A program made the translations under genes and the position numbers. Shown piece after piece: positions 4,419 through 57,320 of a stretch of DNA of 64,000 bases. The stretch's first letter is position 1. Each line of letters starts with the position of its first letter. Origin of the DNA: Eledone cirrhosa (Eukaryota). A model generated the notes under the pieces. It saw only the letters and a program-made list of their open reading frames with translations. It was not told the origin of the DNA and made no database searches. Location of the stretch: contig OZ024741.1 in the NCBI GenBank assembly GCA_964016885.1, positions 136,090,001 to 136,154,000 of the forward strand, read 5' to 3'.

Positions 4419-4560
4419 ATATATATATATATATATATATATTATAAAGAATTAATATCTAGTAACATATATGTACATACATATGCATATCAATGCTAGC
4501 AAATATATAGGTTTTGTCTTAGTAACTTTGTGGTTCAATGCATGGGGTTGCAGAACAATA

Positions 4561-4808
4561 ATATGAGAGACGTAAAATAAGAAAATTATAAAATTAACTT
4601 ACTTACTAAAATATCACTTCCAACTAATTAGTTTCTGGAATGGAATAAATATATTTTCCGAAGAAGATACAGAGAAGCATTCTGTCGAATGCTTCTCTGT
4701 ATCTTCTTCGGAAAATATATTTATTCCATTCCAGAAACTAATTAGTTGGAAGTGATATTTTAGTAAGTAAGTTAATTTTATAATTTTCTTATTTTACGTC
4801 TCTCATAT
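4561..4808. repeat. Perfect fold-back palindrome, 122-bp arms, 4-nt spacer
   Basis: 4561-4682 is the reverse complement of 4687-4808; spacer TGTC; abuts (TA)n. Confidence 0.95.
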
Positions 4809-4860
4809 ATATATATATATATATATATATATATATATATATATATATATATATATATAT

Positions 4861-6090
4861 ATTGGAATAAATGCTCTGAAATAGCGATATATATGTGAAT
4901 ATAGACATAGAATATTCGAAAATATTCTGTATGTTTATAATAAACATTTTGAAGACCTAATCGCTATAGAATAGAATACGTCACGTATTACAATTAGATT
5001 CTCGATAAAAGCAAGGGAAGTAATCTACGCGTTTCATTCTTATTAGAAATCTTCAGGACCACATATCCAGTGCTTTTATCGAGAATGACACAGCTAGAGA
5101 CTTATAGAATACTTAGCTGTGTACAGGAACTGGTTTGAAAGAGCGGTTGCCGGTCCGGCAGAAATTAGAAATTGGAATAAATGCTCTGAAATAGCGATAT
5201 ATATGTGAATATAGACATAGAATATTCGAAAATATTCTGTATGTTTATAATAAACATTTTGAAGACCTAATCGCTATAGAATAGAATACGTCACGTATTA
5301 CAATTAGATTCTCGATAAAAGCAAGGGAAGTAATCTACGCGTTTCATTCTTATTAGAAATCTTCAGGACCACATATCCAGTGCTTTTATCGAGAATGACA
5401 CAGCTAGAGACTTATAGAATACTTAGCTGTGTACAGGAACTGGTTTGAAAGAGCGGTTGCCGGTCCGGCAGAAATTAGAAATTGGAATAAATGCTCTGAA
5501 ATAGCGATATATATGTGAATATAGACATAGAATATTCGAAAATATTCTGTATGTTTATAATAAACATTTTGAAGACCTAATCGCTATAGAATAGAATACG
5601 TCACGTATTACAATTAGATTCTCGATAAAAGCAAGGGAAGTAATCTACGCGTTTCATTCTTATTAGAAATCTTCAGGACCACATATCCAGTGCTTTTATC
5701 GAGAATGACACAGCTAGAGACTTATAGAATACTTAGCTGTGTACAGGAACTGGTTTGAAAGAGCGGTTGCCGGTCCGGCAGAAATTAGAAATTGGAATAA
5801 ATGCTCTGAAATAGCGATATATATGTGAATATAGACATAGAATATTCGAAAATATTCTGTATGTTTATAATAAACATTTTGAAGACCTAATCGCTATAGA
5901 ATAGAATACGTCACGTATTACAATTAGATTCTCGATAAAAGCAAGGGAAGTAATCTACGCGTTTCATTCTTATTAGAAATCTTCAGGACCACATATCCAG
6001 TGCTTTTATCGAGAATGACACAGCTAGAGACTTATAGAATACTTAGCTGTGTACAGGAACTGGTTTGAAAGAGCGGTTGCCGGTCCGGCA
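4861..6090 (-). repeat. Tandem array of a 310-bp hammerhead-containing unit (about 4 copies), retrozyme/pLTR-like
   Basis: ATTGGAATAAATGCTCTG restarts at 4861, 5171, 5481 and 5791. Copies look identical. Preceded by (TA)n. Confidence 0.95.
5020..5062 (-). ncRNA. Minimal type I hammerhead (further copies at 5330-5372, 5640-5682, 5950-5992)
   Basis: Reverse complement: gtggtc CTGAAGA tttctaataagaat GAAAC gc GTA gattac. 6-bp stem I; palindromic stem III ACGCGT. Confidence 0.8.
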
Positions 6091-6480
6091 ATTCTATTCT
6101 ATAGCGATTAGGTCTTCAAAATGTTTATTATAAACATACAGAATATTTTCGAATATTCTATGTCTATATTCACATATATATCGCTATTTCAGAGCATTTA
6201 TTCCAATTTCTAATTTCTGCCGGACCGGCAACCGCTCTTTCAAACCAGTTCCTGTACACAGCTAAGTATTCTATAAGTCTCTAGCTGTGTCATTCTCGAT
6301 AAAAGCACTGGATATGTGGTCCTGAAGATTTCTAATAAGAATGAAACGCGTAGATTACTTCCCTTGCTTTTATCGAGAATCTAATTGTAATACGTGACGT
6401 ATTCTATTCTATAGCGATTAGGTCTTCAAAATGTTTATTATAAACATACAGAATATTTTCGAATATTCTATGTCTATATT
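6091..6480 (+). repeat. Inverted 1.25 copies of the 310-bp unit
   Basis: Reverse complement of the array, ending in (TA)n. Confidence 0.93.
6316..6358 (+). ncRNA. Minimal type I hammerhead (inverted copy)
   Basis: gtggtc CTGAAGA tttctaataagaat GAAAC gc GTA gattac. Confidence 0.8.
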
Positions 6481-6504
6481 ATATATATATATATATATAT
6501 ATAT

Positions 6505-6558
6505 ATAGTCTAACAAAGTTCTTTCGTTGCGCATCTGCAACTTCATCAGTGGTACTAT
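6505..6558 (-). ncRNA. Hammerhead motif at the end of a TA-flanked element (about 6508-7115)
   Basis: Reverse complement: atagtacca CTGATGA a gttgc agatgc gcaac GAAAG aa CTT tgttagactat. A homologous decayed copy lies at about 20668-20721 (+; CTGAGGA...GGAAG). Confidence 0.6.
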
Positions 6559-54170: not shown

Positions 54171-55765
54171 CAGTGCCGCGCAAAAGTTTACAACACATTA
54201 GGAAAAATGCGGTTTTAGGTATTTTTAATAAAGTTAGGGTAATGAAAATTTAACTACTGATAGAACATATAATGAGGCATTTAATGATGCAATCATATTT
54301 TTTTTTAAATAACAAGGAAATAACTCATGAAGAGAAATCAATATTTTTATAACGCAAAAGTTTACAATACATTTTATATTTATCGCTTTTTTTCAAGAAA
54401 ATTCTTAAATTTTCAGATTTAAAATTCAGTAGAATGTTCTAGATTAGGTTTAAGGTAACGTCTAAGGACTATTAAAAACATTACGTCATTATTTGTCTGA
54501 CAACCATCCTGTAAGCATTGACAATATGGGGAAAAATAAACTGATTGATCATGACCCCCGTAAAAGCATTGTAGACCTTCATACAAATGGTGTTGGTTAT
54601 AGAAAGATATCTTGTCAGTTAAATGTGCCATTGAGTTCAGTTGGTACTATAATTCGTCACTGGAAATCTCATCATTCCATCTGTCCTCTAATTAGTTCTG
54701 GTCGTCCTAGAAAGATAACGGAACGTGCAGCTCGGTTATTGATGAGAAAGGTTGGCAACGAACCCCGGTGTACTCTTTAAAATCTTCAGGATGACCTAGA
54801 AGAAAGTGGAGTAAAAGTGAGCACAGATACAATTAGTCGTTCACTTCGTCGATATAATATCTTCTCGAGGTCTCCAAGGAAAACACCACTTCTTACGAGG
54901 AAACACGTTCTTTGTCGATTAAACTTTACAAATGAGCATCTCATCAAACCTGCGTCATTTTGGGAAGATGTACTTTAGTCGGACGAAACAAAAATTGAAC
55001 ATTTTGGTCGAAATGCTGTGGCAAAAGTCTGGAGAAAGTAAAGTACTGAATATTCGCCGAAGAATACTATTCCAACTGTAAAATTTGGAGGTGGATCAAT
55101 CATGGTCTGGGGTTGCTTTAGTGCCACAGGTGTGGGAAATATTGAAATAATAGAAAGAAGAATGGGTGGCGCTTATTATAGAGGTATTTAGCAAAGGAAT
55201 TTACATCAAAGTGCACATTCTCTCAGCTTAAAGCCAGGTTGGTTTTTTCAACAAGATAACCATCCAAAGCATACTGCAAAGCTAACACAATCTTGGTTAA
55301 GTACGAATGGAATAAATGTTCTAAAATGCCCAAATCAGTCTCCAGATCTTAACCCGATCGAAAATTTGTGGAGAGAACTGATACTCAGAATTCAAAAAAG
55401 GAAACCCCAAAATATCTCTGAACTAAAGAAAATTTGTTGTGAAGAATGGAAAAATATTAGCCAAGAAACATGCAAGAAGTTTGTAGGAGGCTACTCCAAA
55501 CGCCTACAGGCTATAATTAGCAACAAAGGTTACGCTACGAAATATTAAGAGATGATTTAATAAATGTGTTGTAAACTTTTGCGTTATAAAAATATTGATT
55601 TTTCTTAATGAGTTATTTCCTTGTTATTTTTTTTAAAATATGATTGTATCATTAAATGCCTCATTATATGTTCTATCAGTAGTTAAATTTTCATTACCCT
55701 AACTTTATTAAAAATACCTAAAACCACACTTTTCCTAATGTGTTGTAAACTTTTGTGGGGCACTG
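54171..55765 (+). mobile_element. Tc1-family transposon with about 200-bp IR/DR-type TIRs, inserted in (TA)n
   Basis: TA|CAGTG...CACTG|TA. 54171-54372 mirrors 55562-55765. CAAAAGTTTACAA.ACATT occurs at both ends of each TIR. Confidence 0.95.
54526..55548 (+). pseudogene. Tc1 transposase pseudogene (DD34E type), in frame with internal stops
   Basis: [61 protein letters not shown]. 341 codons with about 4 nonsense codons. Confidence 0.93.
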
Positions 55766-55812
55766 TATATATATATATATGTATATATATATATGTATAT
55801 ATTTATACATAT

Positions 55813-56070
55813 ATCATCATCATCATCATCATTTTACGTCCGCTTTTCCCTGCTTGCAAGGGTGGGACGGATCCTATTCAGCACAACATCTCTCCACTTG
55901 TCATGGTCCTTCGTCATCTCCTCCGTGAGTTTCAGCGATCTGAGGTCTGCTCTCGCCAACCCGACCATGTTTTTCATGGTCTTCCTCTACTGCGTCTTCC
56001 TTCTACTGGAATTGCCTAGCACATCTTCACCCGAGCTGAGTGAGGTGTTGGTTCCACGAGTAAGACATCA
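55813..56070 (-). mobile_element. RTE-like LINE 3' end with (ATG)n tail
   Basis: Reverse complement reads [13 protein letters not shown]; (CAT)n at 55814-55832. Confidence 0.65.
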
Positions 56071-56894
56071 TATCATGTATATATATATGTATGCATATAT
56101 ATATATATATATATGTGTATATATATATATGTATATATTTATATATGCATATATATGTATATATTTAAATATGTATATATATATATGTATATATGTATAT
56201 ATATGTATAAATATATATGTATATATATATCTATATATCTATATCTATATGTATATATGTATATATATGTATATATATATATATGTATATATATATATGT
56301 ATATATATATATGTATATATATATATATATATATATATATATATATATATATATATATATATATATATATATATATATATATGTATAGACAGTTCAAGAG
56401 TAAACCAATCTTAAATAGAGAGATAGAAGTAGGATGGGAGAGATTGGTGATGGTGTTAGAAGCCAAAGCTTAAAAGCGGGTGCTCGATGTGCAATATGCA
56501 GTGGAAAGCAGTTGGAAAACTGGATTCATGCTGAGGTTAGGTGTACACAGCTGGAAATATTCAGTAGTTAAGCAAATCAAGACGACAAATTCACATAGAA
56601 GACTTCACAGAGTATCGACATTAAGTGCAGTTTAATATAGAAAGGGGATAGTAATGTCAGTTTACAATTGTTTTACTACTCCATATAATGTTTCTGGATC
56701 AATCGATGGTAAGAAAGTTATTGATTTGTAATACGAAGTAATATGTCCAATAAATTCCATTCGTCGCAACACTGATTCTCTTTTTTTCTGTGATATCATA
56801 CTCTGCTCTATGACAGCATCGAGTGCTCATACCGCCTACCGCATACAGATGGTTTAAGAATCCAACACCAATTATATATATATATATATATATA

Positions 56895-57068
56895 GGAAAC
56901 GAGTCAGGACACCAATTGCTGAGCTCCGGCCGTTTCCACAGCTAGTTCTGGACAGCTGTCGAAACGGCCGGAGCTCAGCCATCAGGGTCCTGACTCTTTT
57001 CCTGTTACCCACTCTTCTACCCATAGTATCGAGGACGCTGGTTCATTAGGCTTCACACTTCCTTCGTT
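56895..57068. mobile_element. TA-flanked fold-back element; relatives at 17221-17362 and probably about 36344-36440
   Basis: GCTGAGCTCCGGCCGTTTC / GAAACGGCCGGAGCTCAGC inverted. The 3' end CCTTCGTTATATA is shared with about 17355-17367. Confidence 0.7.
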
Positions 57069-57320
57069 ATATATATATATATATATATATATATATATGT
57101 GTGTGTGTGTATTACCTAAACTACAGCATCTACATGTGTGAGTTATCCTACCAATTGCTTTCAAATACAACATAATATACAACCAATAGAACTTGTACCA
57201 ACTTAGTCCGTGATGTATCACGGACTAAGTGGAAGCAAATATTCTATTATGTTGTACAACATACACACAAACATAAAAATTGCCAACGGGGAAAACCGAC
57301 TTTAAATAACATATATAAAA

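Follow-up and report, generated by a model that had tools for sequence, protein, structure and literature searches.

The stretch of DNA considered here (the window) comprises 64,000 nucleotides (nt) of contig OZ024741.1 from the 3.0-Gb assembly of Eledone cirrhosa, is rich in (TA)n tracts and harbours, at these tracts, elements that carry hammerhead ribozyme motifs. The elements fall into ten families (F1 to F10), with an eleventh cut inside its catalytic core at 4442-4805; a first-pass annotation of the same DNA had counted about nine, a number corrected here. The reading favoured here, and held with fair confidence, is that the window gathers the truncated 3' ends of several Penelope-like elements of the Hydra and Neptune clades inserted in (TA)n tracts, together with two protein-free hammerhead families (F1 and F3) that were likely inserted by the reverse transcriptase (RT) and endonuclease of those elements, probably by copying round one circular RNA. 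The sequence facts behind this reading are the links of families to open reading frames (ORFs), the ORF-less state of F1 and F3, the TA flanks, two kinds of 3' end, head-to-head arms and a single haplotype in each F1 insertion.

All 18 of the hammerhead sites first listed for the window possess a hammerhead-type core at or near the place given. Two strict type I descriptors, taken in union, recover 12 of them, with cores at 5056, 5366, 5676, 5986, 10627, 16780 and 35890 on the minus strand and at 6322, 8535, 10642, 44094 and 44720 on the plus strand. Hammerhead positions are numbered in the conventional manner, and cleavage is expected by the NUH rule. The first descriptor, in which a mismatch at 10.1-11.1 is tolerated, yields 11 matches in the window against a mean of 0.08 and a maximum of 1 in 200 local dinucleotide shuffles, and the second yields 11 against 0.025 (40 shuffles), which places the motifs far above shuffled sequence; a descriptor requiring the 10.1-11.1 pair found a single motif and was dropped, the mismatch-tolerant version having recovered the set. 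The other six cores are atypical or mutated, and further members of their families show the fold. They comprise two Neptune-type cores (6549 and 20677, the latter without GAAA), an atypical or mutated core at 9221, one with a single change in stem I (21123), one in which C3 has become T (44514) and one with a 62-nt stem II (53697; -17.7 kcal/mol). A search of Rfam (E up to 10) gave no hammerhead family among the best 150 of 299 matches, and the microRNA models matched on TA fold-backs are artefacts. Each host element has a (TA)n tract next to it, at one end or at both, and self-BLAST of the window confirms the fold-backs and partial tandems described earlier.

The same association extends beyond the window. 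Sixty evenly spaced 10-kb stretches (600 kb, 0.02% of the genome), scanned with the second descriptor, contain 50 motifs, as against 1, 0, 0, 0 and 0 in five shuffles (mean 0.2). As many as 47 of the 50 stand no more than 200 nt upstream of a TA tract; without one array of 15 motifs the figure is 32 of 35, compared with 17% of background positions (p ~1e-21). The suggested enrichment near (TA)n and the genome-wide density are thus borne out. Scaling 35 motifs per 0.6 Mb gives about 170,000 genome-wide, an extrapolation from 0.02% of the genome, while the counts published for other animals are more than 6,000 in a coral, about 5,000 in a mussel and up to 120,000 in the axolotl (PMC7229834). Stem III in most motifs has 1-2 bp and a palindromic loop, and this short-stem-III form is said to require a dimer for cleavage (PMC4209133). 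Protein remnants of Neptune type occur in 6 and of Hydra type in 3 of the 60 sample stretches.

Judged by the reading frames joined to them, six of the ten families (F2, F5 and F7 to F10) derive from autonomous Penelope-like elements, of which they form the 3' ends or terminal repeats; five belong to the Hydra clade and one to the Neptune type. F7 (21003-22682, minus strand) is a 5'-truncated Hydra-clade element with an ORF remnant at 21303-22514 and a hammerhead core at 21123, and is accompanied by inverted pieces, namely a tail piece at its 5' end and a 3' piece at 21003-21038. Its 403-amino-acid (aa) frame is, as had been claimed, the only open RT/endonuclease frame of at least 120 aa in the window, but it is 5'-truncated, and a second, broken endonuclease of Neptune type lies at about 6810-7116. 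Compared with a 699-codon frame, it lacks about 290 residues at the N terminus, and two further residues are deleted; given this truncation, the copy cannot itself be the helper for which the first-pass annotation had made it a candidate. Of 82,544 first-look candidates for genome copies of F7, 103 copies were scored, and one locus (L024) consists of a terminal repeat, a 699-codon frame with one stop and a further terminal repeat.

F7 is a short (<3 kb) element with a single ORF whose C terminus bears a GIY-YIG endonuclease, recognised by motifs only. Locus L024 carries RWR and DKT (DKT replacing DKG), and the window ORF contains CSCHKPEAC (the CxCX5C linker), CGLC and CPH (CxxC and CxH around a conserved E and N), with CCHH absent. 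With a canonical 3' hammerhead and TA within 4 nt after 35 of 48 3' ends, F7 fits every motif listed in the definition of the Hydra clade (PMC8557442), an assignment made from motifs, the published reference proteins having been compared by eye; in that comparison the protein of the element resembles Hydra-1_Obim.

F2 is represented by a broken Neptune-type 3' end (6508-7116, minus strand) with a GIY-YIG remnant, a 3' untranslated region (UTR) and the core at 6549, by a second copy (20643-20906, plus strand) with the mutated hammerhead at 20677 and a long tail, and by the tail alone at 4277-4417. RT/endonuclease peptides lie upstream in 17 of 19 other loci, and its relatives carry DKSG and a CTNKKCVIC linker (CX2-5CxxC) before the C-terminal GIY-YIG domain. 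These motifs, read against PMC8557442 and not placed on a tree, mark F2 as Neptune-type; the likeness to that clade covers DK(S)G, a CX4CxxC linker, the C-terminal GIY-YIG domain, a 3' hammerhead and tails ending in TA.

The remaining four are Hydra families. F5 (10496-10701) is a fold-back of a terminal repeat with cores at 10627 (minus) and 10642 (plus), and an ORF start follows about 60 nt downstream in 2 of 20 loci. F8 (44008-44199, plus strand; core 44094) is the 3' end of a family with a long 3' UTR, the endonuclease end being continuous and colinear upstream in 1 of 20 loci. Terminal-repeat fold-backs are again found in F9 (44423-44890; cores 44514, minus and mutated, and 44720, plus), with the endonuclease end colinear upstream in 3 of 25 loci and an ORF start just downstream in 1 of 25, and in F10 (53565-53884; core 53697, minus, with the long stem II), the tail of which recurs at 56738-56872. 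The ORF links of F10 come from 2 of 20 loci, an ORF start directly following in one and an endonuclease piece being joined in the other. The view that the hammerhead families are non-coding passengers is hence not general, since these six are joined elsewhere in the genome to RT/endonuclease ORFs; it fits F1 and F3, which are ORF-less tandem passengers. The finding named beforehand as telling against it, families that are simply the ends of autonomous elements, was made for most families and not for all.

F1 (310-nt unit, young) and F3 (420-490-nt unit) are, by their structure, ORF-less retrozymes, with self-cleavage and a circular RNA predicted for both. F1 lies in the window as two arms. The left arm (4861-6090, minus strand) holds 4.0 identical 310-nt units with one hammerhead each (cores 5056, 5366, 5676 and 5986), and its 3' end is long, at unit position 165, on (TA)n; the right arm (6091-6480, plus strand), head-to-head with the left, holds 1.3 units (core 6322), and its 3' end is short, at position 128, also on (TA)n. 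F3 forms a partial tandem of its ORF-less unit at 8213-8794 (plus strand; core 8535) and a second insertion at 35565-36192 (minus strand; core 35890), in which the unit has an internal (TA)n run. The arrays of both are dispersed in the genome, where exact core matches number 14,987 for F1 and 29,070 for F3, with 0 for the reversed controls. The first 36 Mb of contig C1 contain 16 F1 insertions, and the genome-wide total is estimated at about 2,400.

The longest ATG frame is 30 aa in F1 and 49 aa in F3. No ORF was found within the unit or colinear upstream of it at 38 F1 and 25 F3 loci (flanks 1.5-2 kb), and a sensitive BLAST of both against 1.48 Mb of genome DNA returned no ORF-bearing partner, only older non-coding relatives of F1. 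The F1 unit has 34% GC and is better folded than each of 100 shuffled versions (z -4.1); folded as circles, F1 and F3 have 58% and 67% of their bases paired. In the hammerheads of both, 10.1/11.1 is unpaired, as in most listed Hydra hammerheads. F3 units measure 419-494 nt, the longer ones owing their length to the internal TA run. This variable (TA)n run of the unit itself serves some F3 copies as 3' end (window 35565-36192, L089 and L290), and the F3 unit thus carries the target of its helper. Older F1 relatives (L190, L095, L205, L274 and L204) show 73-85% identity and different ribozyme stems, and one of them is two-armed. As a separate observation, the F1 unit (window 4861-5480) occurs nearly unchanged, with 3-4 differences, in public sequencing runs under four organism labels.

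It could be argued that all families, F1 and F3 included, are terminal repeats of autonomous elements yet to be located, and that the arrays are terminal repeats in repeated form. This account is correct for six of the ten families, for some of them through only 1-2 of 20 loci, and the inspected sample is 38 of about 2,400 F1 insertions and 25 F3 loci within the flanks given above. Nevertheless, it is improbable for F1 and F3: both form complete, circularly permuted units that close on themselves, with runs of up to about 29 and more than 20 units respectively, what lies 5' of a unit is without exception either the unit before it or an inversion junction, and the older F1 relative L190 has the same closed, two-armed form.

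Further evidence is provided by the anatomy of the insertions. The 3' ends fall into two clusters, short and long, in each of seven families tested, and most are then followed by TA (35 of 48 in F7, 47/66 in F8, 24/34 in F10, 34/44 in F5, 29/32 in F9, 24/33 in F6 and 14/26 in F4); F3 likewise has a short and a long cluster. The stretch by which they differ is read as the Penelope tail, which has been traced to two internal RT start sites (PMC11167929). F1 insertions consist of two arms set head-to-head with their 3' ends outward, the short ends lying at unit positions 123-139 and the long ends at 159-170. A first set of 22 loci was chosen by similarity; after removal of 3 that were one-armed or cut and 1 that lay at the end of a contig, 18 readable two-armed insertions are left, of which 14 pair one short end with one long end. 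A second set consists of 16 successive loci on contig C1, 4 of them one-armed or cut, and 11 of the other 12 show this pairing, making 25 of 30 in the two sets (p = 1.6e-4 against coin flips). TA runs adjoin 26 of 28 3' ends in the position-picked set, the exception, an F1 insertion outside TA, shows an 11-14-bp target duplication, and the 5' junctions are scattered round the unit.

Moreover, each F1 insertion carries its own sequence variants. Among nine insertions with at least two whole units, 69 of 73 whole units match the haplotype of their own insertion; six haplotypes are represented, the arms agree in 6 of 6 testable cases, and one insertion keeps six variants through nine units in both arms. 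The similarity-picked set shows the same insertion-wide pattern. The end pattern together with the haplotypes supports a Penelope-type insertion from a single, probably circular, template.

These features also bear on whether the arrays are satellites amplified at the DNA level, by unequal exchange or DNA circles, with TA tracts acting as fragile landing sites. Long arrays do exist (L290 and L068), and a DNA-level route has been discussed for retrozymes (10.64898/2026.07.22.740005); satellites nevertheless fail to predict fixed 3' and random 5' ends, the pairing of short with long, the head-to-head polarity or the target duplication, and these end features are common to the autonomous elements here as well, making satellite origin very improbable. 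More serious, though still unlikely, is the explanation that F1 and F3, although Penelope passengers, have as their templates long, linear transcripts that read through uniform donor arrays, and that the ribozyme plays only an incidental part. Uniform donors would give uniform daughters, and a single haplotype accounts for 4 of the 9 insertions; furthermore, an anole element inserts in vitro without the need of hammerhead cleavage (PMC11167929), and of nine retrozyme dimers from frogs eight failed to cleave (10.64898/2026.07.22.740005). Against this, in the loci read, private changes in single units are not passed on as patterns shared between insertions. The insertion-wide ribozyme variants, a few sites and suggestive only, affect free core position 7, loop II, position 10.1 and a stem I G-U turned A-U, and none falls on a conserved core base.

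For the favoured reading, in which F1 and F3 are copied by a Penelope-type enzyme from a circular RNA, the following steps are proposed. The endonuclease would nick both strands of a TA tract, and each nick would prime the RT at either of two start sites inside the RNA, giving a short-ended and a long-ended arm; the two cDNAs would end at random points and then join head to head. In F1 the template would be a 310-nt circle, arising when dimeric hammerheads cleave a tandem transcript and the product is ligated, and each arm would thus repeat one sequence as a concatemer.

Between the short and long ends of the Hydra families lies a hairpin composed of RCTC, an inner stem, a short 3' bulge and GAGY, followed by RCTY. 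It is located on the plus strand at 22622-22644 (F7), 44820-44843 (F9, with the outer pair in G-C form) and 53826-53853 (F10), with a second F10 copy at 56800-56827. In the unbiased genome sample, GAGYRCTY sites 30-110 nt before TA have a complementary RCTC upstream in 30 of 44 cases, as against 4 of 72 other sites (p 5e-13, copies within a family not being independent). The two sides covary, GAGT occurring with ACTC at 23 of 34 sites and GAGC with GCTC at 7 of 10, and ACTC never with GAGC. Removal of 2 alternative registers and 4 near-duplicates from 23 clusters leaves 17 representatives, in which the outer pair is A-T in 12 and G-C in 5, the collecting pattern itself favouring outer-stem pairing; their inner stems comprise 58 pairs, compared with a mean of 40 and a maximum of 54 in 500 shuffles. 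Relatives of 6 of 12 sampled hammerhead clusters bear the hairpin, as does F4, and F6 has a long-looped form; F1, F3 and the Neptune tails do not carry it. The hairpin is visible in four consensus sequences of PMC8557442, being legible in those of coral and sea cucumber in the supplement and altered in that of the sea louse, while the listed Octopus consensus ends before the tail. The available main text of that paper contains none of 'hairpin', 'stem-loop' and 'palindrom'. On this comparison the tail hairpin is common to Hydra families across phyla and new to the literature searches made, and, lying between the two start sites, it may be the binding site of the Hydra protein.

The claim that the passengers are moved by a TA-targeting Penelope enzyme survives as regards TA targeting and a Penelope-type mechanism; the shared target does not name the helper, because TA tracts here form the end of elements from at least two, and probably three, Penelope-like clades. 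For F1 and F3 the likeliest helper is an enzyme of the Hydra clade, with the balance of probability leaning modestly in its favour, to which point the ribozyme style and one weak match, 28 nt at 89% between F1 and the F5 Hydra ribozyme (E 0.01). A Neptune enzyme comes next and is on the unlikely side; it is suggested by the lack of the hairpin and by a clean F1-Neptune fusion (L065) with the short end on the F1 side and the long end on the Neptune side. The fusions of F1 lie at L065:4680-5900 (Neptune arm), L080:2430-3500 (a third GIY-YIG type) and L321:1700-2460 (Hydra 3' end).

Several observations weigh against the overall interpretation. The tail hairpin is absent from the F1 unit and occurs in 0 of 111 F3 relatives, and the three TA-less F1 fusions name three different clades (Neptune, the third GIY-YIG type and Hydra). 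The ORF links of F8 and F10 stand on 1-2 loci each, and searches of Pfam and PDB sequences with the Hydra and Neptune ORF pieces gave no match, so that the domain calls rest on motifs. Five of the 30 two-armed F1 insertions violate the short-plus-long rule, and a 7-unit periodicity in array L068 shows arrays to be shaped also by duplication at the DNA level or by artefacts of assembly. One haplotype per insertion would likewise result if a uniform donor array gave a long linear transcript. Furthermore, 5' ends are not enriched at the cleavage site (3 of 48 in F7, 2 of 34 in F10, 1 of 32 in F9 and 0 in four families), and these counts did not bear out an idea, suggested by the window at 21003, that 5' ends coincide with the ribozyme cleavage site. 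Finally, cleavage, circle and transcript are predictions.

Apart from the families treated so far, F4 and F6 showed no ORF link in the 20 loci read of each. F4 (9096-9245, minus strand; core 9221) is an old, short hammerhead element of about 80% identity; in most of 23 matches it ends no more than about 15 nt from the core. F6 (16694-17109) is a fold-back with a core at 16780 (minus) and a long tail. No colinear ORF was found within 1.5 kb in 20 loci of either family, and other copies of F6 have more than 1 kb of non-coding sequence upstream. As F6 extends for more than 1 kb free of ORFs, like the long UTRs of F8 and F9, F4 and F6 may be either passengers or ends of autonomous elements; neither behaves as a tandem retrozyme in the 20 loci of each, the copies being single or folded back with no unit repeats. 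Fixed 5' ends, at first suspected for F6 and F10, disappeared once more copies were examined. The eleventh family (4442-4805) is folded back inside its catalytic core and has (TA)n on both sides; its motif is intact in locus L238, and a loose end provides the absent core bases.

Other repeats share the window. A very common TA-bounded family with a tail motif and a GC-rich hairpin (17221-17362, 36342-36460 and 56895-57067) has no hammerhead core in the 130 nt upstream and is possibly another Hydra 3' end or a ribozyme-free passenger. A TA-ended family at 10279-10340, 10802-10994 and 11370-11563 has the first half of a hammerhead core with no second half, and more TA-bounded fold-back families with no hammerhead in the window lie at 18971-19163, 29649-29977 and 8814-8859/9016-9061. 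A DNA transposon at 54171-55765, whose terminal inverted repeats measure 204 bp and whose transposase is broken, is flanked by TA at either end and is presumably of Tc1/mariner type by motifs read by eye. A DDE_1 transposase remnant (Pfam E 9e-14) occupies 27422-27925. A SINE-like repeat of about 190 bp, not TA-specific, has more than 15 copies (4016-4210, 19517-19702, 32145-32338, 45040-45226, 47038-47226, 59556-59940 and others).

Most of what is found here, namely the presence in TA tracts of Hydra and Neptune ends with hammerheads, was known before: terminal-repeat hammerheads, TA targeting by Hydra elements and an Octopus bimaculoides family, Hydra-1_Obim, are in print (Craig et al., 2021; PMC8557442). 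The likeness to the Hydra clade there described extends to the short single ORF with RW[K/R], DKT, CxCX5C, CxxC and CxH, the C-terminal endonuclease, the 3' hammerhead, insertion in (TA)n, partial tandems, inverted 5' pieces and a tail at one end. The differences are that at least five Hydra families occur in one window, whereas a single Octopus family is listed, and that tails measure about 65-140 nt here against the 30-40 bp described. An in vitro system for the Poseidon element PAc (Frangieh et al., 2024; PMC11167929) is similar in that both strands are nicked at AT-rich DNA and that there are two internal RT starts with the tail as the stretch between; it belongs, however, to another clade, no non-autonomous template was tested in the available account, and its RNA feature is an AC-rich stem-loop, not the hairpin seen here.

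Animal non-LTR retrozymes and their proposed movement by Penelope-like elements have likewise been published (Cervera and de la Pena, 2020, PMC7229834; Li, Clavereau and Pollet, 2026, preprint 10.64898/2026.07.22.740005). F1 and F3 resemble them as ORF-less, low-GC, self-paired units, arranged in tandem and 150-450 nt long, each containing a single type I hammerhead and occurring beside Penelope-like elements. They differ in that footprints of the helper are direct here (TA target, head-to-head arms, short and long ends, target duplication and haplotypes); the available text of PMC7229834 has no 'inverted', 'target site', 'microsatellite' or 'octopus'. In Xenopus, 24 of 57 retrozyme families share sequence with an autonomous element, whereas none was found for F1 and F3. 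The available sections of a 2026 repeat annotation of Octopus vulgaris (PMC13282606) have no 'hammerhead', 'ribozyme', 'Hydra' or 'retrozyme'. Retrozyme footprints, per-insertion haplotypes and the hairpin were not found in the searches made of the Penelope, hammerhead and retrozyme literature, which did not extend to Repbase and Dfam; the supplements of the bioRxiv preprint may list related families.

Taken at its widest, the analysis leads to a tentative proposal that falls somewhat short of being probable. F1 would be a currently active ribozyme circle, copied by a TA-targeting Penelope-like enzyme through rolling-circle reverse transcription from both nicks and haplotype-tagged in about 2,400 insertions; Hydra enzymes would recognise their RNA by a hairpin conserved from corals to cephalopods and placed between the priming sites; and the genome would hold about 100,000-200,000 hammerheads, among the densest sets in animals. 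The Penelope-and-circle route has been proposed from co-occurrence and sequence kinship, the evidence on the life cycle being limited according to its authors (10.64898/2026.07.22.740005), and a very young F1 with the end pattern of its helper and single-template haplotypes offers a direct genomic test of that route. F1 would, in addition, lend itself at once as substrate to the Penelope assay already established in vitro. In the Hydra clade, whose enzyme is directed at TA microsatellites, the tail hairpin may be the signal by which the RNA is recognised; it can be useful both in studying how telomerase-related RTs prime internally and in the annotation of repeats that escape Pfam and Rfam here.

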